From a virus (Duplodnaviria; Caudoviricetes), in IMG/VR virus record IMGVR_UViG_3300028364_000013: 64,000 bases of DNA; one strand, given 5' to 3'. How positions within the stretch are numbered: position 1 is the first letter of the stretch; every line of letters starts with the position of its first letter. The translations under genes were made by a program, and so were the position numbers. Under the pieces are notes generated by a model. The model saw only the letters and a list, made by a program, of their open reading frames with translations, ran no database searches and was not told where the DNA came from. Shown here one piece after another: positions 2,950 to 38,577 of the stretch.

Positions 2950-3170
2950 GCATTAAAGAAGTTAAGAGTAAGTTCTCCTACAGAACATACATCCGCATCT
3001 GATTCCTCAAAGTCATCCAACTCTTCATTATAAGCGCCCAAGTGATTTTCAAGGTCTTCCTCAAACTTATCAAGCCTGGCAGCCTTTCTTTCTAATTCGT
3101 CAAGTACTTTTGAATCAATTTCTACTTTTACCATTTTTGTCTTTTTTAATTTCAAGACAAATATAAGCAA
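2940..3170 (-). CDS. hypothetical protein (start probably at internal Met)
   Basis: ORF in operon. Confidence 0.55.
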   Translation of the reverse strand: MLIFVLKLKKTKMVKVEIDSKVLDELERKAARLDKFEEDLENHLGAYNEELDDFEESDADVCSVGELTLNFFNAWR

Positions 3171-5482: not shown

Positions 5483-6443
5483 TATAGTAAACCACATCAG
5501 CTATAACAAATTGCTTCAGGAATTTCACCCAAAAAAAAACAATGATGTTAAATTATTGGATTTTAGTCATGGAAGTCATAAAAAAGTCTGGTGGAAGTGT
5601 AGCGCTTCTTATGACCACGAGTGGGAAGCTACAATAAACCACAGAGCTCAAGGACGTGGGTGTCCATTTTGTAGCGGTAAGAAAGTTGCTGAATCAAACG
5701 CTTTGTCAACAACTCATCCAGAAATAGCAAAAGAGTGGCATCCAACAAAAAACACCTTGACACCAGACGATATAACTTTTGGTAGTGAAAAAAATATTTG
5801 GTGGAAATGCGATATTGCTGACGACCATGAATGGGAGACAACAGTTAAACATAGGTCAAGTGGAAATGGTTGCCCTTGTTGTTCTGGTTATAAAGTTGTA
5901 AACTCTAACTCTCTTACCACACAACACTCAGAATTATCAAAAGAATGGCATCCAACAAAAAATGGAGTAATAACTCCAAATGATGTATCTGGTGGTCATC
6001 GCAAAGTATGGTGGATATGTTCGCAAGATGGTAACCATCAATGGAAGGCTTCTATAAAAGATAGAATAAGAGGTAGGAGATGCCCTCATTGTCATTATCC
6101 TAAAAGCAAAGGTCACCTAAAAATAGAAAAAATACTTATTGATAATAATATTAATTTTGAAACAGAGAAAAAGTTTGATGATTGTGTGTTCAAAAGAATG
6201 CTTAGATTTGATATTTATTTACCAACCTTAAATGCTTTAGTTGAATATGATGGAAGACAACATACCAATGCAGTTGATATATTTGGAGGTAAAAAAGAAT
6301 TGGTTAAAACCCAGAAAAGAGATAAAATAAAAGATGAATATGCTAAAAATAACAATATTCATCTTTTAAGAATTTCTCACAAAGAATTCAAAAATATTGA
6401 GTCAATTGTGTTAGATTATTTGAAGGTAATTACAAACTCTTAA
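5469..6443 (+). CDS. putative homing endonuclease: tandem Zn-ribbon repeats + Vsr/DUF559-like nuclease domain
   Basis: Repeats HP.KN....VWWKC....HEW.......GCP.C; C-terminal RFDIYLP...VEYDGRQH. Confidence 0.8.
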   Translation: MKKNNIVNHISYNKLLQEFHPKKNNDVKLLDFSHGSHKKVWWKCSASYDHEWEATINHRAQGRGCPFCSGKKVAESNALSTTHPEIAKEWHPTKNTLTPDDITFGSEKNIWWKCDIADDHEWETTVKHRSSGNGCPCCSGYKVVNSNSLTTQHSELSKEWHPTKNGVITPNDVSGGHRKVWWICSQDGNHQWKASIKDRIRGRRCPHCHYPKSKGHLKIEKILIDNNINFETEKKFDDCVFKRMLRFDIYLPTLNALVEYDGRQHTNAVDIFGGKKELVKTQKRDKIKDEYAKNNNIHLLRISHKEFKNIESIVLDYLKVITNS

Positions 6444-10274: not shown

Positions 10275-10676
10275 TTAATCTAACAAAGATTCAATCTCAG
10301 ATAATGTAAATTTATCAGCAGCCCTCTTGAACGCTTCCATTTTATATACATCCATAAGTGTCTTAGGGATATAACCCATACTCATCTCATTCTCTACCTC
10401 TTCAAACTCTACAGTTAAATCAGCAACAGAATCTTCAAGACAGCTCACTTCATCCTGCAGCTCTTTTATTTCATCGTTCTTGTCTTCGCAAGAACTACAT
10501 TCTCCATTTAGGATTTCAAACAAAAAATCAGAATTATCCTCTAATACATTTAGAAGGTCTTCGTTGGTCTTGCAGTCATCAATTTCTTTAACGAAATCAG
10601 CTCCAGTTTTCATCACCTCCAAAGCAAATGCTTTTAGAGTCTGCTTGAATACTTTGTTTATTTCTTTGTTTTTCAT
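10275..10676 (-). CDS. hypothetical coiled-coil protein
   Basis: acidic heptads. Confidence 0.7.
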   Translation of the reverse strand: MKNKEINKVFKQTLKAFALEVMKTGADFVKEIDDCKTNEDLLNVLEDNSDFLFEILNGECSSCEDKNDEIKELQDEVSCLEDSVADLTVEFEEVENEMSMGYIPKTLMDVYKMEAFKRAADKFTLSEIESLLD

Positions 10677-11263
10677 ATGTCGTACTTTTGTTTGTATTCC
10701 AGATACTTAATGTGTTTATTTGTCTCCATCCACCACTTGTTCCAAACGGAGTTTCTCTTTTTATAATAATGAATATTAAAATATTTGTCAGAAAATACTG
10801 GACCAAGATTATCCATAATCATAATTGAAAGCGATATTATAGTCACAAATGTTATAACAAAAAACGAAACCCCTAATGACACGTTTCCCAGAGCAACTAA
10901 TACTAAAGAAATTGATAAAAATGGAGATAGAATTAGTGATAAATAAATAAAGTTTGATGTCATACTTTTCCACCAAAAACCTTCTGGCTTTACTGGTGTA
11001 AGTTCTCTAATTTCTTCTTTTGACTTAATTTTAATTTTTAACTTAATGACTTCACATCTCCTGCACTCAACATAACTCTCATCTTCATCAAAAGTATAAG
11101 CCATTCTACCTTCCAGTTTTGGGTGAGGTATGACTCCAGAAATTGTATTTACTTTAAGTCCACTCTTGAAAGGTTTTAACTTATACTTCCCAATGTTTTT
11201 ATCATCGAGAGGTCTCTTCTTGCACTTTTTTCCTATATTCGCCTCAAATTGTTCTACATCCAT
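10673..11263 (-). CDS. hypothetical membrane protein
   Basis: two hydrophobic segments. Confidence 0.7.
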   Translation of the reverse strand: MDVEQFEANIGKKCKKRPLDDKNIGKYKLKPFKSGLKVNTISGVIPHPKLEGRMAYTFDEDESYVECRRCEVIKLKIKIKSKEEIRELTPVKPEGFWWKSMTSNFIYLSLILSPFLSISLVLVALGNVSLGVSFFVITFVTIISLSIMIMDNLGPVFSDKYFNIHYYKKRNSVWNKWWMETNKHIKYLEYKQKYDI

Positions 11264-11296
11264 AGTGGTTATACGATTATTATTATAAAATGTTCT

Positions 11297-11611
11297 TTAC
11301 TTTCTTTCATTTCTTTCATTCTGCTTGATGCCAAAGTAAGTTCCAAAAGAACCACCAAGCAAAAACAATATAACTGGCACAACATCTCCACTCAACACAG
11401 ACTTTATTCCTATTGAGAAAGAGATTAGCGTAAGTATTCCGACCCCGTTGCCAGTAAGTATGGCTGCTAACTTCTTTTTCTCAGCAGTATAAATCACATT
11501 TAATGTCCTAAGATATATGAACATAAACTGTGATAAAAACACAATTATAGCAGACCAGTATGGGTCATTTAATATGTCTTGAATTAATTCTTTCATTAAA
11601 ATTTGTAACAC
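11297..11611 (-). CDS. small membrane protein (DUF5698-like)
   Basis: FIYLRTLNVIYT...AAIL.G..., three TM segments. Confidence 0.6.
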   Translation of the reverse strand: MLQILMKELIQDILNDPYWSAIIVFLSQFMFIYLRTLNVIYTAEKKKLAAILTGNGVGILTLISFSIGIKSVLSGDVVPVILFLLGGSFGTYFGIKQNERNERK

Positions 11612-11913
11612 GAAGGAGGGTTCAATCCTTCTAAATGATTCTTATATTCAGCCATACAATCTCTATGTGCTGATTCTAAATTGTTCTTTAAATCTCTTAA
11701 AAATGACTTATACCATTCTTTATCTTCATCACTGCGAGTCCAGCTTCTTCCATTCTTAAAAAAATCCTGTAGCGCATCTTTAAGTTCTTTTGCACCCTTC
11801 TCATAAAAACCAACTCTGCACTTATACCAATTAGTATAAGAAAGACAGGTTCCTTCTTCAGATGTTATGTCTGGATACCTTTCTCTAATATCTTTAAACT
11901 CTTCGTCTGTCAT
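11596..11913 (-). CDS. hypothetical protein
   Basis: ORF downstream of promoter motif 11946-11972. Confidence 0.65.
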   Translation of the reverse strand: MTDEEFKDIRERYPDITSEEGTCLSYTNWYKCRVGFYEKGAKELKDALQDFFKNGRSWTRSDEDKEWYKSFLRDLKNNLESAHRDCMAEYKNHLEGLNPPSCYKF

Positions 11914-12022: not shown

Positions 12023-12052
12023 CAAGTTAGAACCAATTTAAAAAGAATAGAT

Positions 12053-12967
12053 ATGAACAAGCCAACAACATATAAAGAAGTTCCATTTATAATTCAAGAT
12101 GGACTTATGTTTAGAGATGAAGTTCTTAACTCATTCCTTTCAGCGGATGGTGGAATTCCTTTGTCAACAATGATTGCATTAGCAGGAACTTCAGGAGCAG
12201 GTAAAACTACTCTTTGTAAGAAACTTCAAAAAGAACTTTCTCCAGACCTATTCTCTACATTCTTCTCTTTAGAGACAAGCAAAAATTCAGTTGCTCGTCA
12301 AACTAAGAGAGTTGAGACTGGAGACAACGCATTGGTTTGTGATGATAAAGATTTTCCAACATGGTCTTCATTTATGAAGTATTTATATGAAGACAAGCCA
12401 ACGATTGCATTCATTGACTCTCTTCAACATGCTGCAAAGCTTCTTTCTAAGGAGAATGGAAAATATAAGTATGATAATTATGCTCAGATTGTAGAAGACC
12501 TTTATACATGGAAAGAAGAGTGCAACACTATTGTTGTAATGATTGTTCAATTAAATGGACAAGGTAAGGTTGAAGGTCCAGAAGCTACAGTTTTTGATGT
12601 AGATGTTCCTTTAAAACTTATTGCTAACCCAAAAACTAAAGAGCGTCACTTAGAGGCTTCTAAAAATAGAAACGGTGGAACAGTTGGTAGCATTTATTAT
12701 GAATTTGTTTCTGATGATAGAATTATTCAATTCTTTGATGAAGACGAATATAAAATTGCTAAAGAAGGAGTTTCTCTTCCAGAGATGGTAACTGATACTG
12801 CATTTCAATTTGCTTCAGCATTCAAAAACCATGAAAACTACAAGTCTTTCAAAAAAGACTTCAACAAAGAAGTAAAAAAGATTTACAACGACAACAATGA
12901 TGATGCTGTAATTTGTACACAGATTGTTATGGTAATGACAAAGTTGTCTAAAGAATACTTTTCATAA
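12053..12967 (+). CDS. RecA-superfamily (RadA/Sms-like) ATPase
   Basis: Walker A GTSGAGKTT, Walker B FIDSLQ, KNRNG motif. Confidence 0.75.
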   Translation: MNKPTTYKEVPFIIQDGLMFRDEVLNSFLSADGGIPLSTMIALAGTSGAGKTTLCKKLQKELSPDLFSTFFSLETSKNSVARQTKRVETGDNALVCDDKDFPTWSSFMKYLYEDKPTIAFIDSLQHAAKLLSKENGKYKYDNYAQIVEDLYTWKEECNTIVVMIVQLNGQGKVEGPEATVFDVDVPLKLIANPKTKERHLEASKNRNGGTVGSIYYEFVSDDRIIQFFDEDEYKIAKEGVSLPEMVTDTAFQFASAFKNHENYKSFKKDFNKEVKKIYNDNNDDAVICTQIVMVMTKLSKEYFS

Positions 12968-14251: not shown

Positions 14252-14489
14252 CCTTTAATTCCATATCCGAGTTTTCACTTCTTTGAGTCCCTATCGCTAT
14301 GTGCATCCAGTCACACTTATTAGAATCTATTGCACATAATACACCTACTTTATAAATGTAACTTGTTCGGTTATCTAACCATGCATCAGAAAGTGCGTCT
14401 TCGTTAACGTCTTCGCTATAATCCCAACTAGTCCATTCATCATTAAACTCGGATATTGCTTTTAGTTTTTCTTTAAGGTAATTTTCCAT
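14220..14489 (-). CDS. hypothetical protein at edge of cassette array 2
   Basis: ORF starts just left of the first attC-like element. Confidence 0.65.
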   Translation of the reverse strand: MENYLKEKLKAISEFNDEWTSWDYSEDVNEDALSDAWLDNRTSYIYKVGVLCAIDSNKCDWMHIAIGTQRSENSDMELKGVFHFNEGEK

Positions 14490-14639
14490 AATTAAAATAA
14501 CGCACCCTAAAAATGTATAAAAATAATAGCTATTAGGTGCTGTTTATAAGGCTATTACTTGTTAATTAAATTTATTCCTATCAGATAGCTAACGCATATT
14601 TACACGCTACTATTATTATACTAAACGTTATGTGCAAGG

Positions 14640-14930
14640 CTAACTTACTGCTTCCAAAAGACGATTTTTAATCCATTCAACATTTGGAACACCATTGCCA
14701 TTTAATACTTCAAGAACTTCGTTTATGGCTTCTTTCATTTTTGGTGCAGAAATAATAAGTTTAGCGTCTTCCATTCTTATTTCATCTGTATATCCATTGT
14801 GGTCGCCATAATCTTCTTGCATTACTTCAAGTCGTGGATAATGTCCATTTTTTTCTGCATTTGGTAAATCTGCTTCTATAAAAAACATTGATTCACTTAC
14901 AACTCTTACTCTCCAATTTTCTGTATTCAT
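14640..14930 (-). CDS. cassette hypothetical protein
   Basis: bounded by complementary R sites. Confidence 0.7.
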   Translation of the reverse strand: MNTENWRVRVVSESMFFIEADLPNAEKNGHYPRLEVMQEDYGDHNGYTDEIRMEDAKLIISAPKMKEAINEVLEVLNGNGVPNVEWIKNRLLEAVS

Positions 14931-31184: not shown

Positions 31185-31789
31185 TCTTCAAGTGCTTTTT
31201 TAATATCTTCTAAAAAATCATACAATTCTTTATCAGCATGCATGCCAACATCAATTTTATGATTAAGCTCTTCTGAAAGCTTAAACCTCTCAACGCTTAT
31301 CGCATAATGCTCGAATAAACCATTAAAGTATTCCTGTCGATACTCACCATCATTTTCATGTATTGTTCTAATAAGCTCTCCATCTTGGTCGAAGAATGCG
31401 TCACAATAAGGAACGCTTACAATAAACATTTTTTTATTAGCCATTTTCTTTACTTTTTTTCTTTTATGCTTACCTCCAACCACTTCAACGACAACTCCAT
31501 AAACAGCTTTTGTCCATCCATTTACATACCCTTGATTGTTTGAAATCTGACAACCACGCTTATCATCTTTTGCAGTAACAAGGTGAGTGTACCAATTTCC
31601 TTTAACTTTGCAGTATGCAATATCTCCAACCTGAACGCTATCGCATGTAGCAGGAGCAAGCATATGTTCTTGGCCAGACTTAATAAGAGGAACCATAGAG
31701 TTACCTTTCTCGCTCGTCAAGAAAGATTCTCCACTTTGTAGTCGTTCTAATTTGTAATTTCTTGCCATTGTTTTTATCTCTCGATGCAA
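31181..31789 (-). CDS. peptidase S24/S26-like domain fused to unknown domain
   Basis: GNSMVPLIKSG..., VGDI.YCKV.G...THLV. Confidence 0.6.
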   Translation of the reverse strand: MHREIKTMARNYKLERLQSGESFLTSEKGNSMVPLIKSGQEHMLAPATCDSVQVGDIAYCKVKGNWYTHLVTAKDDKRGCQISNNQGYVNGWTKAVYGVVVEVVGGKHKRKKVKKMANKKMFIVSVPYCDAFFDQDGELIRTIHENDGEYRQEYFNGLFEHYAISVERFKLSEELNHKIDVGMHADKELYDFLEDIKKALEE

Positions 31790-31828
31790 ATGTATAGCAA
31801 ATATTTCAATTAAAAAAATTTTGTTCTT

Positions 31829-34126
31829 ATGATTTATTTAGACTATATTTACACACAGATAATTGACAACATGAACGACAGCAAGAAAGAGAAAGTAACA
31901 GGAATTATAGATAAGATAATTTTTCACAATCAAGATAATGGATACTATATACTAAGCGTATCTCTTCCAAATGATGAAGATGTAACCATTACAGCAAGCC
32001 ACCCAAGTCTTCACGAAGGTGTAACTTATGAATTTGAAGGTGGATGGATTGAGCATGCTCGTTTTGGAAAACAGATGAACTCTAAAGCTGTATATGAAGT
32101 TCCACCAAACACTAAAGAAGGCCTTAAGGCATATCTTGCGTCAAGTTTCTTTCCAGGAATTGGTCCAGTTATCGCAAATCGAATAATCAAGCATTTTAAA
32201 AATGATGATGTCATAAGAGTGTTTAACGAAGACATCGAACTGCTTCTTGATGTTCCTGGAGTTTCTAAAAAGAAGTTAGAAGCAATCAAGGAGTCATGGG
32301 AGGCAAACAACGAAATAAATGAAATAATGATGTTCCTTCAGCAATTTGGTATTACCACTGTATATGCTGCAAAGATTTATAAGCATTATGGAAAAGGTTG
32401 TGTTGCTCAAATCAAAGAGAGACCTTATGAGATTGCAAGAGATATTAAAGGAATAGGATTCAAGTATGCAGATAAAATTGCTCTTGAAGTTGGTGTTGAG
32501 CCTGATAGCGAAGAGAGAATAAAAGCCTGCATTATGCACATCCTTGAATCTGGTAGTCTTGATGGTCATTGCTATTTATTAAGAGAGCAAATTACTATTA
32601 AGTCAACCGAATTACTTGGAGTTGACATTAGACCCCAAGTTGAGAACATCTTAAAGTATATGATTCAAGAAAAAGATATTTTAACAATATATCTTGATGA
32701 TGAAGAAAACGAAACAAGGTACTATTCTAAAAAGCTTTATTATAATGAAAAAAAATGTGCCAACAGAATTGGAGAACTTTTATTAAATCACAAAAACATT
32801 GAAATATCTGAAACAATAATTGAAACTGGCAAATTAAGTAATGAACAAAAAGAATCAGTTTTTGGAGTTATATCTAAAGGGGTTTCAATATTAACTGGAG
32901 GCCCTGGTTGTGGAAAAACATATACAACAAAAACTATTGTTGAAGTATTGTTGAAATTAGGTAAAAACTTAGCGGTTTGTGCTCCTACAGGAAAAGCTGC
33001 ATTACGTAGCACATCAGTTATTGGATTTGAAGCTTCAACTATTCATAGACTTCTTGGTTGGGACCCAGAGAGTTTTGGATTTATGCATAATGAAAATAAT
33101 CCATTACCATTTGATTTTATAATAACAGAAGAAGCTTCGATGATTGATATAAATTTAATGTCATCATTTTTAAAAGCAATACCTGACGAATGTCAGATAT
33201 TATTTGTTGGAGACCACAATCAATTACCCCCTGTAAATGCTGGAGCACCATTTAGAGATATGATAGAAAGCGAAATTGTTCCAACATTTAAACTTACTGA
33301 AATTTTTAGACAAGCTAAAAACTCTGAAATCATAACTTCAGCACATGATATAAATAATGGAATAATGCCTGTAATCAAAAATCCTTTAATAAATCCAGAG
33401 ATTTGGAAAGATGGAACAGATTGTATGTTTATTGACTCTGGAGTTGGTGAATATGGAAGGCCGAATAGTGAATATCCAGAGCGGTCTTCTCTTAGATATG
33501 GTATGGATGTGGTGGATATGATTAAAAACATTTACACTAAAACTATAAAAAAGTACTATAACACAGATGATATTCAAATATTAATCCCAATGAAAGTATC
33601 TGATTTAGGAACTATTAAAATAAACTCAATTATTCAAGAAACAATAAATCCACTAAAAAGAGGAGATGAAGAAATAAAAATAGGTGATAAAAAATTTAGA
33701 AAAAACGATAAAGTAATCCATATACAGAATAATTATGACCTTGAGGTTTTTAATGGAGAAATAGGAAAGATAATATTAATTGATTCCATTTCTGGTTTTT
33801 GTGAAGTAGAATTTGATGGGGGTAAAATAATTAAATATAAAAAATCAAATATGATTGAACTTGAACTTTCGTTTGCCGTTTCAATACATAAATACCAAGG
33901 CAGTGAATGTTCTTGCATAATATTACCAATAATGCCAACATACAACAGAATGCTTGAGAGAACTTTAATCTATACTGGAATCACTCGTGCAAAAAAATTG
34001 TGTATTTTTATTGGCAAAAGAGAATCGTTGCAAAAAGCTGTTAATACAGTTAATTCATCTAAAAGACAAACTTCTCTTAAAGAACTTTTAATTGAGTCTG
34101 ATATGGTAAATTCACTTATCCCTTAA
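31829..34126 (+). CDS. recD2: RecD2-type SF1B helicase
   Basis: N-terminal OB, GIGP and GIGFKYAD HhH motifs, TGGPGCGKT, EEASM, GDHNQLPPV, SIHKYQGSE, YTGITRAK. Confidence 0.92.
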   Translation: MIYLDYIYTQIIDNMNDSKKEKVTGIIDKIIFHNQDNGYYILSVSLPNDEDVTITASHPSLHEGVTYEFEGGWIEHARFGKQMNSKAVYEVPPNTKEGLKAYLASSFFPGIGPVIANRIIKHFKNDDVIRVFNEDIELLLDVPGVSKKKLEAIKESWEANNEINEIMMFLQQFGITTVYAAKIYKHYGKGCVAQIKERPYEIARDIKGIGFKYADKIALEVGVEPDSEERIKACIMHILESGSLDGHCYLLREQITIKSTELLGVDIRPQVENILKYMIQEKDILTIYLDDEENETRYYSKKLYYNEKKCANRIGELLLNHKNIEISETIIETGKLSNEQKESVFGVISKGVSILTGGPGCGKTYTTKTIVEVLLKLGKNLAVCAPTGKAALRSTSVIGFEASTIHRLLGWDPESFGFMHNENNPLPFDFIITEEASMIDINLMSSFLKAIPDECQILFVGDHNQLPPVNAGAPFRDMIESEIVPTFKLTEIFRQAKNSEIITSAHDINNGIMPVIKNPLINPEIWKDGTDCMFIDSGVGEYGRPNSEYPERSSLRYGMDVVDMIKNIYTKTIKKYYNTDDIQILIPMKVSDLGTIKINSIIQETINPLKRGDEEIKIGDKKFRKNDKVIHIQNNYDLEVFNGEIGKIILIDSISGFCEVEFDGGKIIKYKKSNMIELELSFAVSIHKYQGSECSCIILPIMPTYNRMLERTLIYTGITRAKKLCIFIGKRESLQKAVNTVNSSKRQTSLKELLIESDMVNSLIP

Positions 34127-35092
34127 TGTTCTATATTTATAAAACTCTTGTGATTCTAATTGTTTAAAATTTAATAAATTTAAAACTATTTCAGGAGAAT
34201 TGTTATACAAATCCACAAAATAAATCTCTTTATCAATTTTCCATAAAATTATTAATCCAATATTATTTTCTTTACAATATTTTTCTTTTATTTTATCTCT
34301 TTTCTGTGTCTCTTTTAATTTTTCGATTCCACCGAAATATTCAACAGATTCAAAATGTTGATTTCCATGATATTCTATACACACATTTTGTTTTGGCAAA
34401 TAAAAATCAAATTTTAAATGCAAAATATATTTACAATCATTAAATTTTTTCTCACCTTCCAACTTTACCATGTTTTCTTTTAAAATTTTATAAATCATTT
34501 TTTCTCCATTTGAAAACTTGCACTTAGGACACCCATCGCCTCTTTTATGTGCGTTAGGGGTTTGCTTAAAATCACCATGATTTGAACATATGATAGATAC
34601 TTTTTTCATACAATTATCATAATTAACTTTTGAGTAATCATATTTATCTCCATGAACTAATTTAGAATCAGATATAAACTCTTTCAATGTCAATCTTGAT
34701 TTATTTGCATTTAATTTAATTCCACACTTTATACAACCATATTTTAAATGATTTTTAGGAGTTTGTTTAAACTCTCCATGTTCTGGACAAATAATTTTTA
34801 CTGCTTTTAAAGAATTGTTGTATTGAACTAGAGAGTAATCGTATTTATTTGTATGTATATTCCTCACCTTTTTAATAAATTCTTCAGTCGTTATATTTTT
34901 GTTAACACATTTTGGACACCCCTGTCCTCTAAAATGTTTTTCTGCAGATTGTTCAAAAATACCATGTTCTGAACAAATAATTTCAACCTTCAATTTACTC
35001 CCTAAATATTCAACAAGTGAATAATCATATTTGTATTCATGAATTTTATTTGACCTTTCTGTAAACTCTTCTGTTGTTAGTTTTACTGACAT
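34112..35092 (-). CDS. putative homing endonuclease: YDYS/IC..HG repeats + Vsr/DUF559-like nuclease
   Basis: 3 repeats KYDYS.V.Y.....V.IIC..HG.F.Q; KFDFYLP...IEYHGNQH. Confidence 0.8.
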   Translation of the reverse strand: MSVKLTTEEFTERSNKIHEYKYDYSLVEYLGSKLKVEIICSEHGIFEQSAEKHFRGQGCPKCVNKNITTEEFIKKVRNIHTNKYDYSLVQYNNSLKAVKIICPEHGEFKQTPKNHLKYGCIKCGIKLNANKSRLTLKEFISDSKLVHGDKYDYSKVNYDNCMKKVSIICSNHGDFKQTPNAHKRGDGCPKCKFSNGEKMIYKILKENMVKLEGEKKFNDCKYILHLKFDFYLPKQNVCIEYHGNQHFESVEYFGGIEKLKETQKRDKIKEKYCKENNIGLIILWKIDKEIYFVDLYNNSPEIVLNLLNFKQLESQEFYKYRTLRDK

Positions 35093-35093
35093 C

Positions 35094-35246
35094 TTAAACT
35101 CCTTTTTCTAAAGACTCTCTAATAACCTCTGATACTTTAACTATTCTCTTTTCTTCATTACTACGCTTAATAGCCTTTTCTACGTATTTCTGGTATAACT
35201 CATAACTCAGTCTAACGCTCAAGTGTTTATCAATTGTTTTTTTCAT
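35094..35246 (-). CDS. 50-aa ribbon-helix-helix-like protein (not in ORF track)
   Basis: MKKTIDKHLSVRLSYELYQKYVEKAIKRSNEEKRIVKVSEVIRESLEKGV; stop 1 nt before endonuclease start. Confidence 0.7.
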   Translation of the reverse strand: MKKTIDKHLSVRLSYELYQKYVEKAIKRSNEEKRIVKVSEVIRESLEKGV

Positions 35247-35303
35247 TGTAATATTGTATATTTGTGTTACAATTATAAATAGTAATAAAAATAAAAATCA
35301 TAT

Positions 35304-35460
35304 ATGAATAGAAAACCACTTGGATATTGGACAAAAGAATTATATCATGAAACAGCTCTAAAGTGTGATTCAAGAAGTGAGTTTCAAAAAAAATATAGTG
35401 GAGCTTATCAAGCTGCTTATAGCAATGGTTGGCTCGATGAAATTTGTCCCCATATGAGAC
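35304..35460 (+). pseudogene. endonuclease-associated DNA-binding repeat fragment
   Basis: GYWTKE....ALKC.SRSEF.KKYSGAY.AA..NGWLDEICPHM. Confidence 0.55.
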
Positions 35461-35704
35461 GATACAAACCTGCGTTATCATTCCAATCATGACTCAATAC
35501 TCAAGAATGCTTTATAGAAATTTATTGTACACAGGACTTACAAGAGCAAAGAAGTTGGCTGTATTTGTTGGACAACGTAAGGCGTTTAATATGGCGATTG
35601 ATAATGTTGACCCAAGAGCAAGACAAACCTCCTTAAAAGAGCTGTTAATTGAGACTGGGATTATAAAAAAAGGAGTTAATCTTTTACGACAACTCCTTCT
35701 TTAA
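35460..35704 (+). pseudogene. second, diverged copy of RecD2 C-terminus
   Basis: CVIIPIMTQYSRMLYRNLLYTGLTRAKKLAVFVGQRK...RQTSLKELLIE aligns to the end of 31829-34126. Confidence 0.85.
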
Positions 35705-36056
35705 TATCTTTAATGTACTGTTCCTTTGTGCCTTCAAGTTCATTATATTCCTCTTCTGATACAAAATCGCAATCTACAAATTCAAGCTCAATCTTTTTTA
35801 ATATCGCCTGCCTGGCTTTCATCTTAGCGAAAAAAGCTGCCCTGGCTGGTATAAACATCTCATACTCTTTATGACTCTCTTGTGGGTTTAAAGGGTCGTT
35901 AACCTTTATAGTAAACTTTACAAAGTACATCCTGTTCTTTAAAGCTCTCTCTTTACGAACTTTCTTTTTCTTATATGTACCAAGCTTCCACTTCCTAAAG
36001 AGGTCGAAGAATTTTAAAATAAACTTAGGTAAATTTGAAGGTTCGTTTTTTGTCAT
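35676..36056 (-). CDS. hypothetical protein
   Basis: ORF in operon. Confidence 0.65.
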   Translation of the reverse strand: MTKNEPSNLPKFILKFFDLFRKWKLGTYKKKKVRKERALKNRMYFVKFTIKVNDPLNPQESHKEYEMFIPARAAFFAKMKARQAILKKIELEFVDCDFVSEEEYNELEGTKEQYIKDIKEGVVVKD

Positions 36057-36059
36057 TTG

Positions 36060-36458
36060 TTATTTTGCTAAAAAACCTTCAAAATTAGATTTTATATTAT
36101 TTAATTGAGCACTGTCTTTTATGTAATCAAGAACCTCACCGTCTTCAATGTTGTATGGTATTGCAAACAAGTCAAAAACTCCATCTTCAAATGAAAATAT
36201 TGCAACATAATCATTATTAATGTCTCCACCTTTAGGGAAATCAAGAGATAAATACACTCTTTTAGCGCCATTGTTTTTGTATTCTGCAAACCTCCTATAA
36301 CAAGAAGCAACATCACCACCTAATGCTAATGCGTTTATTTCAAACTTATTATCTTTTGTTTCTACAAAAAGTTGAAATGGGTAATGACCATAACAATTGC
36401 TATTTTCAATGAAATCTATTTTCACCATTGATTCTACAAATTCTTCTACTGTATTCAT
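36060..36458 (-). CDS. hypothetical protein
   Basis: ORF in operon. Confidence 0.65.
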   Translation of the reverse strand: MNTVEEFVESMVKIDFIENSNCYGHYPFQLFVETKDNKFEINALALGGDVASCYRRFAEYKNNGAKRVYLSLDFPKGGDINNDYVAIFSFEDGVFDLFAIPYNIEDGEVLDYIKDSAQLNNIKSNFEGFLAK

Positions 36459-36475
36459 TTTTATAAATTTAATTT

Positions 36476-36766
36476 TTAAACAAAATTTGCTCCTCCTTTA
36501 TAGAAAATATAATGAGATTTACAAGGTAATTGATAATTCCCAACACTTGGTTGCATACTTATATTATCATTTGAATCTAATTGGTAACTCCACTCTCCTT
36601 TTCCCAATGGCATAACCGTCTTACTACCGCATCCACACATACATTTATGAATAGATACGCTGTAAATGTCAGAAATGTAAATTACATTATCTTCAAATTC
36701 ATTAAAATCAGGCATGGTTTCCACTTTTTTATATGTTACCTCTATCCTGTTTTTAGTTTTTTTCAT
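36476..36766 (-). CDS. DUF6527-like protein
   Basis: HKCMCGCG...PL...W......PSVGN....CKSHY. Confidence 0.65.
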   Translation of the reverse strand: MKKTKNRIEVTYKKVETMPDFNEFEDNVIYISDIYSVSIHKCMCGCGSKTVMPLGKGEWSYQLDSNDNISMQPSVGNYQLPCKSHYIFYKGGANFV

Positions 36767-37680: not shown

Positions 37681-38577
37681 TTATTTTGTTTTTTTACAAT
37701 ACCAGCCAGTATATTTTAACAAGCCTTTTTTTTCTAACCTTTTTTTGTTTGACCCTAAATTATTATAAATAGGCTCTCCTTTTTCTCTATATGACTTCTT
37801 AAACGCTCCATATGGTAAGTTATTTTTTTTGCAAAATTCTGTAAAATTTTCATTTAAAATGTGATACTTTTTCACATGATTATTATCATATATAAAATAC
37901 TCACTTTTATTAAAATTAACCCCCTTTGTATATCCAACTAACTCTCCAGAAACATATCTTTTATCATCTACTCTAACTTTTAAAACATTACCATTTTTAT
38001 CTCTCACTGTAGCAATTCCAACATTAACTGACATTAGATTGTCGTCATTTGCATATTCTTCTTTACTAACTCTTTTTTTCTCTCCAGTTACATTGTCAAT
38101 AACACTAACTAATCCATTTTTTTCAAAAGTCCTTGTTAGTTGTCCATTTTTAATTCTTTCATCATCATTATTGACTTGAAATGTATTTCCATCTTTATCA
38201 AAAACAGCTATTTTATTTTTTGCAACTCCAAATAAAGAATCATCTTTATCAAAATCTTCTTTTTTTATTTGCCTTCCATTTAAAGAAACATAACCTTTTC
38301 TAAAACCTCCATGACCACCTAACTTTAAATTATAAGTATCATCTCTTTTTATAAAATCTTCATTAACAATTTTTGATTCCATCAATTTCATTTCATCTTC
38401 ACTTTCACAAAAATGTAAAATCCTTTTTTCAAAATTATCAATACCATATTTATTAATAACACGTTTTATATAAAGTCCAGACCCCATATAACCATCATCA
38501 ATATTTATTGTCTTGTGATACCCAACATAAACCATGTTGTTAATCTTATTTTTTATTTCATAAATTGTGTAAAACAT
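37681..38577 (-). CDS. GIY-YIG homing endonuclease (Seg-like)
   Basis: [19 protein letters not shown]....DDGYMGSG...[11 protein letters not shown]; YNLKLGG.GG. Confidence 0.88.

Follow-up and report, generated by a model that had tools for sequence, protein, structure and literature searches.

Here, we examined the recD2 gene of a Caudoviricetes phage (Duplodnaviria) and its 3′ flank, which are contained in a window of 64,000 nucleotides, i.e., the whole stretch of DNA analyzed, that is part of the 168.6-kb IMG/VR virus record IMGVR_UViG_3300028364_000013. Our analysis revealed that this recD2 is a mosaic of a native 5′ third and a diverged 3′ part, that the gene is immediately followed by a cassette carrying an endonuclease gene, and that its native 3′ end lies on the other side of the cassette as an orphan fragment. 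In all likelihood short of certainty, a homing endonuclease cassette, together with co-conversion of the adjacent sequence, produced the hybrid recD2 and stranded the native end. The phage carrying the locus is an uncultured giant (jumbo) lake phage. The locus comprises the following features:

31829-34126, plus strand: recD2 as a whole, full-length, 765 amino acids (aa).
31829-32780, plus strand: native (A-type) 5′ third of recD2 with the OB, HHH and HHH_RecD2 domains, delimited by identity to L003/P0002, tree and chi-square analysis.
32781-34126, plus strand: imported (B-type) 3′ two-thirds of recD2 with the helicase core, the SH3 domain and the C-terminus, recognized by trees of the clade termed B below and by the G+C content of third codon positions (GC3).
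34112-35092, minus strand: endonuclease gene, the 3′ end of which overlaps the recD2 stop by 15 nucleotides (nt), recognized by DUF723, PHROG matches and an AlphaFold2 (AF2) model.
35094-35246, minus strand: 50-codon open reading frame (ORF) of the cassette, conserved in B-clade cassettes, with an AF2 model.
35239-35284, no strand assigned: conserved upstream element with a 13-nt inverted repeat (35239-35279), the right border of the mobile unit.
35304-35492, plus strand: 62-codon ORF between the upstream element and the orphan.
35304-35456, plus strand: filler, a single DNA-binding module (W-T-x-E ... G-W-L-D-E-I-C-x-H-M) that resembles modules of GIY-YIG enzymes.
35469-35667, plus strand: orphan, corresponding to native recD2 codons ~694-759, recognized by BLASTP, relatives, the ratio of nonsynonymous to synonymous substitutions (dN/dS) and GC3.
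35671-35698, no strand assigned: native intergenic, terminator-like hairpin with an 8-bp stem, flanking A run and T run, and a z-score of -2.4.
35676-36056, minus strand: native gene beyond the hairpin, 126 aa; in relatives that lack the cassette, it is convergent with recD2.

The product of the gene at 31829-34126 contains, in this order, the domains OB_YrrC, HHH, HHH_RecD2, AAA_19/AAA_30, SH3_13 and UvrD_C_2 (E-values from 1e-13 to 4e-37) and agrees with an alignment of 28 sequences at all of its invariant positions, among them the Walker A lysine, QGS in motif V and the motif VI arginine; by these signatures, it is a RecD2/YrrC-type helicase of superfamily 1B. The two parts of the gene have different relatives. 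The 5′ part (codons 1 to ~317) shares 84% DNA and 90% protein identity with its counterpart in L003, the locus of protein P0002 and the closest cassette-free relative, and the DNA identity to L003 falls from ~84% to ~63% near 32750-32790. In sliding windows, residues 1 to ~300 are 80-97% identical to P0002 and those that follow 55-65%, with identity to a second set of proteins climbing at the same point, which places the switch from A-like to B-like near codon 300-320. This second set consists of the nearest relatives of the resident C-terminus (66-79% identity), namely, P0003, P0004, P0006, P0007, P0010, P0012, P0013, P0015, P0016 and P0050. The maximum chi-square statistic peaks with 117.5 at 32780 (95% band 32762-32786), a value reached in 0 of 300 shuffles, and mismatches to L003 amount to 15.7% of the positions to the left of 32780 and to 36.3% to the right. 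Phylogenies of the individual segments agree with this partition: in the tree of residues 15-300, the recD2 of the window pairs with P0002 as its sister at 100% support, with the second set dispersed among other sequences, whereas in the tree of residues 330-693, it falls with the second set into the 12-member clade B, which also includes P0044. In the tree of residues 695-761, the resident end belongs to B (96% support) and the orphan is placed among the non-B sequences. In approximately unbiased (AU) tests, monophyly of B is rejected for the 5′ segment (p 2e-112), and so is a clade of the window protein with P0002 for the 3′ segment (p 6e-41). By these comparisons, recD2 is an in-frame A/B hybrid helicase gene with a breakpoint at 32762-32786.

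Base composition breaks at the same place, with GC content and GC3 of 0.339 and 0.272, respectively, in 31829-32767, 0.297 and 0.168 in 32768-34126, and 0.364 and 0.338 in the orphan. The cassette-free loci L003, L006 and L008 have a GC3 of 0.27-0.36 in both halves of the gene, with no drop along it, and GC3 is as low as 0.14-0.18 over the whole gene in the AT-rich B loci L099, L101 and L102. Given the low GC3 of the 3′ part, the native-like relatives without such a drop and the AT-rich B loci, the imported piece looks like the DNA of a lower-GC phage.

The homologs of recD2 used here are a set of 120 proteins with 50-72% identity; scanning of viral contigs for recD2 yielded 6 loci, and a scan of metagenomes returned mostly distant bacterial recD2. 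Several recD2 relatives of 1098 aa (P0077, P0083, P0099, P0107 and P0118) contain Hint and LAGLIDADG intein domains, so that at least two kinds of selfish elements target the recD2 of this phage group. In L013, a frameshift at 3118-3119, either a sequencing error or the mark of a pseudogene, splits a non-B recD2 near residue 661 into P0049 (648 aa) and P0123 (106 aa).

The orphan begins 1.34 kb past the recD2 stop, with the endonuclease gene, the 50-codon ORF and the 62-codon ORF in between, and resides in an ORF (35444-35704, plus strand) that contains a fragment of UvrD_C_2. In a gapless BLASTP alignment with recD2 residues 695-760, 36 of the 66 positions are identical (55%) and 53 of the 66 similar (E 3e-25); thus, the two different C-termini around an endonuclease cassette, claimed in a preliminary description of the locus, were confirmed in coordinates and sequence. 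The left edge of the orphan lies directly past the motif V codons, where the native protein reads ...QGSEFD/C..., with homology starting from the Cys codon; at the other end, the orphan lacks the last ~6 codons and the stop. It shows 87% DNA identity to L003 and 85-91% protein identity to the C-termini of P0008, P0009, P0002 and others, with 89-91% to non-B C-termini. In comparison with L003, dN and dS are 0.06 and 0.67 for the orphan and 0.058 and 1.01 for the 5′ part. The dS values are of the same order; by this measure, the orphan has evolved for most of its history together with the 5′ part, under one constraint and in one lineage, and its stranding is recent.

The orphan is also embedded in the surroundings of a native recD2 end. 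Hairpins are found at the place of the one at 35671-35698 behind the intact recD2 of L008, L012 and L013, although a terminator scan did not flag the hairpin of the window, the loop of which is too long for the scan rule. Homologs of the 126-aa gene directly follow recD2 in L012, L013 and L022, and follow the cassette in L005, such that the order in cassette-free loci is recD2, hairpin and a convergent gene homologous to 35676-36056. Judged by this conserved order, the orphan is the native recD2 end at its native place. L003 contains two extra minus-strand genes (10312-11660) between recD2 and the homolog of the 126-aa gene, and the 3′ flank of recD2 is therefore variable even without a cassette. 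Other short recD2 C-terminal ORFs were rejected as orphans: P0134 is a frameshifted bacterial recD2, and P0124 and P0125 are located at contig starts.

The type of the recD2 3′ part is strictly linked to the cassette. An endonuclease gene running over the recD2 stop, followed by the 50-codon ORF, is present in all 7 B loci (the window, L004, L005, L099, L100, L101 and L102), each with the same convergent 15-nt overlap, and in none of the 6 non-B loci (L003, L006, L008, L012, L013 and L022); the corresponding Fisher probability is ~6e-4 if the loci are independent, and their independence is only partial. The B-clade members P0003, P0007, P0010, P0012 and P0050 were left out of this count. The same layout of recD2 and cassette occurs in L007, a distant phage the recD2 of which is 45% identical. 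The 3′ parts of type B are united in a single clade, their 5′ backbones being dispersed in the tree, and the cassette is polymorphic for presence and absence at one locus, that is, in sequence terms, the locus displays the polymorphism with linked flanks by which intronless homing is recognized. Six of the 7 B-clade loci, and L007, carry the cassette without an orphan. Given that most related cassettes have no orphan, the displaced gene end is a by-product of particular homing events rather than a fixed part of the element. A few kb from its recD2 cassette, the L004 phage additionally contains a Hint-domain ORF that stands alone (12026-12493, minus strand) and another DUF723 endonuclease copy (14321-14885, plus strand).

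In the preliminary description, it was further proposed that the cassette had imported a diverged, cleavage-resistant 3′ part of recD2, more AT-rich than both the 5′ part and the orphan, and had displaced the native end. Apart from the resistance to cleavage, which is putative, this proposal withstood our analysis: segment-wise phylogeny and GC analysis located both of the predicted breakpoints, phylogenetic and compositional, the B type is tied to the cassette, and the orphan is closest to the C-termini of the 5′-part lineage (the shortest tree path leads to P0002, with which the 5′ part also forms a sister pair) rather than to unrelated RecD paralogs.

The endonuclease, 326 aa in length, combines three zinc modules of the DUF723/treble-clef type (Pfam DUF723 and DUF4379) with a Vsr-like nuclease domain at the C-terminus and matches the PHROG homing endonuclease families phrog_559 (3.6e-69), phrog_9084 and phrog_7140. 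In its AF2 model (predicted local distance difference test score, pLDDT, 80.6), residues 193-315 align in VIA-align with 1cw0_A (Z 9.2, root-mean-square deviation 2.8 over 103 residues), 1vsr (Z 8.1) and 3r3p_A (Z 7.0, 84/97 residues), so that the C-terminal domain is modeled with a Vsr/I-Bth0305I-like fold; Foldseek alone gave weak E-values of 0.02-0.2. Across 8 homologs, the residues F228, D229, E240, G243, Q245, H246, K264, D266 and K269 are invariant, reading FD...E..G.QH...K.D..K and not a literal EDxHD. A PDB sequence search and NCBIfam returned nothing usable for the endonuclease, and a search of 31500-36500 against Rfam with E-values of up to 1 detected no intron and no other RNA family. 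As a separate minus-strand ORF outside any intron, the gene is classified from its arrangement as a free-standing homing endonuclease gene. The family is large, with at least 537 copies in viral contigs. The same phage genome encodes two more DUF723/Vsr-like paralogs (window 5544-6374, plus strand, and G000:C1:119929-120981) that are 35-48% identical, as well as a homing endonuclease of the GIY-YIG type (window 37681-38577, minus strand; phrog_314 at 3.3e-33) located 2 kb from the recD2 cassette.

The remainder of the cassette and the sequence that separates it from the orphan differ in conservation. The 50-codon ORF is present in all 7 B-clade cassettes with 66-80% identity, more conserved than the endonuclease (47-52%). 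Its AF2 model (pLDDT 86.7) shows two helices and an unstructured N-terminus; the Foldseek matches are mostly ribbon-helix-helix (RHH) proteins, at E-values of 1.5 or higher, and no sequence match was found in PDB or Pfam, so that the product may be an RHH regulator. The upstream element is shared by the window, L223, L099, L101, L102 and L005 up to ...TTATAAATAG, and beyond this point all loci diverge. On the plus strand, the element holds TATATTTG, which resembles a Bacteroidota-type -7 promoter box aimed at the filler and the orphan; no comparable -7 box was seen for the minus-strand genes. The filler module is 46-62% identical to modules in 38 viral contigs, in several of which a GIY-YIG domain follows, and modules of this type are repeated in GIY-YIG homing endonucleases of phages; the similarity, which includes phrog_20046 at 1.9e-13, stops at residue 51-56, just before the orphan, and no counterpart was found in L003, L004 or L005. 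The filler is probably the stump of a second endonuclease gene, derived from the donor. The small plus-strand ORFs found beyond the right cassette border in the window, L223, L099, L101 and L102 were considered as a shared cargo gene and rejected, as they are mutually unrelated.

We propose that these features are the outcome of a single homing event, for which we infer the nuclease activity, the position of the cut, the resistance of the B allele and the repair route from sequence. The cassette resides directly behind recD2, beside the diverged B helicase core, in a group of related jumbo phages. During a mixed infection, the donor nuclease would have cut the cassette-free A-type recD2 of the ancestor past motif V (QGSEFD/C, ~codon 691-694). 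On the left side, the break would have been resected or repaired across the whole diverged region, with donor sequence replacing recD2 from ~codon 317 to the stop, since the left end had to reach homology beyond the diverged helicase core; such a co-conversion tract of ~1.35 kb would yield the in-frame A/B hybrid. This search for homology beyond the diverged core may also account for the change of type close to one variable linker in all twelve B genes. On the right side, copying would have run through the cassette into a neighboring donor gene and would have been terminated by non-homologous joining to the unresected break end, so that the last 66 native codons, the hairpin and the downstream gene stayed in place and the codons were orphaned.

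A second orphan indicates that the position of the break recurs. A search of short proteins with the orphan as the query led to P0127, encoded within the 1.5-kb contig L223. The left end of this contig, 88% identical to 35218-35291, covers the 5′ end of the small ORF of the cassette, followed by the upstream element; next come an unrelated 65-codon ORF and an L006-like A-type recD2 end that extends from ...EFDC through the native stop, and, at the right end, a hairpin and a backbone that is 94% identical to L004, in which the cassette is present and the orphan absent. In L223, the junction falls within the Ser/Glu codons of the QGSE stretch, at a distance of 10-12 nt from that of the window. 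Because the backbone, the filler and the exact junction differ between L223 and the window, these are separate events, and two breaks at one conserved spot are the expected outcome of a site-specific cut. Thus, the recurrent start of orphans just past motif V points to a site-specific break there, as far as can be read from the two junctions. A by-eye look for a pseudopalindrome at the putative cut site found nothing convincing. Comparison of 80 other loci of the endonuclease family yielded similar duplications, namely, direct repeats of 120 nt with 93% identity in L210 (2714-2833 and 3765-3884) and of 51 nt with 92% identity in L200 (3870-3920 and 4888-4938); in both loci, one repeat is the 3′ end of the convergent neighbor gene and the other an orphan copy beyond the endonuclease gene. 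The neighbor gene of L200 weakly resembles a head-tail adaptor. Separately, two unrelated metagenome contigs, L221 (1-12) and L222 (1-7), begin 6-11 nt before the P-I-M codons of an A-type recD2, within ~20 nt of the orphan junction; polymorphism at this position may break assemblies, but this is a weak hint.

Several observations weigh against homing with co-conversion as set out above. Four B alleles (L004, L099, L100 and L101) encode QGSEFDC like the A alleles, so that, with a cut at motif V, any resistance would need another source. It might lie, for example, in the fixed difference between MLYRN and MLER(S/T) 25-55 nt downstream, but the orphan still carries the MLYRN / MLER(S/T) stretch. 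The nearest sampled cassettes are only ~50% identical in the endonuclease, such that the true donor lies outside the sample. In the AU test on the 67-column C-terminal alignment, the resident end and the orphan as sisters are not rejected (p 0.19), and the groups in the trees were named only after the trees had been inspected. Finally, all 12 B-clade genes change type at about the same place, near a variable linker, which fits an old diverged block with a freely recombining 5′ flank as well as repeated homing.

The last of these points leads to the alternative that survives best, namely, that ordinary homologous recombination made the hybrid, with the B core an old allele that sits beside the endonuclease by chance and the orphan an unrelated illegitimate insertion, no endonuclease break being involved. 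A common switch point near one variable linker is what is expected of a freely recombining conserved 5′ domain, the genes found beyond the right end of the cassette vary greatly, and cleavage by the cassette nuclease is deduced from sequence. However, chance does not readily account for a perfect linkage of cassette and B type across backbones that are scattered in the 5′ tree, for the starts of two independent orphans at a conserved catalytic motif, no more than ~12 nt apart, or for the duplicated ends of neighbor genes at other loci of the same endonuclease family. Thus, we consider this scenario improbable, if still deserving attention.

Alternatively, the orphan could be a designed part of a “gene-end replacement” unit that inserts at recD2 codon ~692, with the native end serving as the right homology arm and lost from the orphan-free loci. 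The two orphans at the same position would be explained in this manner, the same layout is found at other target genes in L210 and L200, fungal mitochondrial mobile ORFs offer a precedent (PMC3630166), and the 94% identity of the downstream backbone between L223 and the orphan-free L004 is compatible with later loss. Nevertheless, we regard such a unit as very unlikely: the absence of an orphan from 6 of the 7 B-clade loci and from L007, an imported tract that extends 1.1 kb upstream of the supposed insertion point, fillers that are unrelated in the two cases and cassette ends that differ between L223 and L004 all favor separate accidents.

Local tandem duplication followed by divergence, or a chimeric metagenome assembly, for which it could be said that both copies are collinear and in the same orientation, can be practically dismissed, given that the resident end and the orphan belong to different clades, each with close relatives in other phages, that the histories of the 5′ part and the 3′ part of recD2 disagree, and that the identical arrangement is found in independent assemblies and samples. 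Indeed, the identical 765-aa recD2 protein is encoded in 8 contigs of up to 364 kb from lake-water metagenomes; the gene order, including the 62-codon ORF and the orphan, is identical in the independent Logan assembly L092; contigs of two runs, the possible source runs, span 31500-36500 without a mismatch; and a 621-nt contig from a further lake sample covers 35038-35658, i.e., the end of the cassette, the filler and the orphan, with zero differences. Coverage in runs X3 and X4, from other samples, was patchy, with no contig bridging the left breakpoint by 31 nt on both sides. The arrangement of recD2, cassette and orphan is genuine and not an assembly artifact. When 50,697 phage records were searched by blastn with distant settings, the locus had no relative among them, and the only matches were short ones to endonuclease genes elsewhere.

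With homing and co-conversion as the preferred explanation, the locus is an unusually complete natural record of a free-standing homing endonuclease acting on an essential phage gene, as it preserves the hybrid product, the length of the tract, both junctions and the discarded end, along with cassette-free and cassette-bearing relatives and a second independent event. It also predicts a cut site for an uncharacterized, widespread endonuclease family with a Vsr-like nuclease, and it would imply that allele replacement driven by homing, so far known mainly from T-even phages and ICP1, shapes core replication genes of uncultured jumbo phages. For annotation, the locus is a warning that short ‘exonuclease V alpha’ ORFs beside endonuclease genes can be displaced gene ends. 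A more far-reaching possibility, which we put forward tentatively and consider rather unlikely, is that the cassette is an active gene drive in natural lake jumbo phages that cuts motif V in the essential recD2 of co-infecting rivals and spreads together with a resistant core, the stranded end being the next homology arm. If so, phages would possess an equivalent of the gene-end replacement by fungal mobile ORFs, and the cassette would serve as a weapon against competing phages.

The simplest account of the locus, by analogy, would be intronless homing as in the Seg and Mob enzymes of T4. These free-standing endonucleases cut hundreds of bp from their own genes, and the ensuing repair co-converts the flanks (PMC2988022, PMC2790892). 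As with SegF, SegG and MobE, the endonuclease gene studied here lies between genes and not in an intron, the flanks are co-converted with localized allele replacement, and the presumed cut falls within the neighbor gene of cassette-free relatives, ~200 bp from the insertion point. By contrast, the nuclease belongs to another family, T4 resolves the break by homology on both sides without a displaced gene end, and the process is deduced here from natural variants and in T4 from crosses. In the architecture of the enzyme, the closest parallel is I-Bth0305I, an endonuclease of a phage recA intron with a footprint of ~60 bp and the prototype of the EDxHD homing endonucleases (PMC3239194; PDB 3R3P). 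Both are multidomain phage endonucleases with a C-terminal Vsr-like nuclease domain that target a DNA-metabolism gene at a conserved motif (a predicted one in our case), but I-Bth0305I resides in a group I intron in recA, whereas the gene described here is free-standing, with no intron detected. As in the homing endonuclease gene islands of ICP1 (PMC10448857), the endonuclease gene marks the edge of a recombinant block with essential phage functions as cargo, although the cargo here is part of a single gene, resulting in an intragenic hybrid and a stranded gene end.

For phages, co-conversion and marker exclusion are established phenomena, as is the location of endonuclease genes at the borders of exchanged blocks (PMC2988022, PMC10448857). 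A literature search, which cannot show absence, returned no phage case with a displaced native gene end; thus, homing with co-conversion is known in principle, and this form of it is apparently undescribed for phages. The locus is, then, mechanistically ordinary, well documented and useful as a natural experiment. Its closest structural precedent is found in the mobile-ORF hybrids of fungal mitochondria, in atp6, atp9, cox2 and nad3 of Glomus sp. and in atp6 of Allomyces macrogynus, cited in the same work (PMC3630166). In both systems, the resident gene is fused in frame with a foreign C-terminal part, downstream of which lie an endonuclease ORF and, behind it, the native C-terminus; the latter groups with close relatives and the inserted end elsewhere, and the identity between the two ends is low, 63.5% at the DNA level in Glomus atp6 and 55% at the protein level here (PMC3630166). 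On this comparison of sequences, the arrangement in the window, with its foreign end, endonuclease ORF and retained native end, is a mobile-ORF hybrid of the fungal type. The differences are nonetheless substantial: the host is a jumbo phage rather than a mitochondrion, and the nuclease is Vsr-like rather than of the LAGLIDADG or GIY-YIG type; the endonuclease gene is not in phase with the gene that it follows but is convergent on the opposite strand, overlapping the gene stop; and the imported tract far exceeds the duplicated part (~450 versus 66 codons), with most of the related cassettes carrying no orphan.

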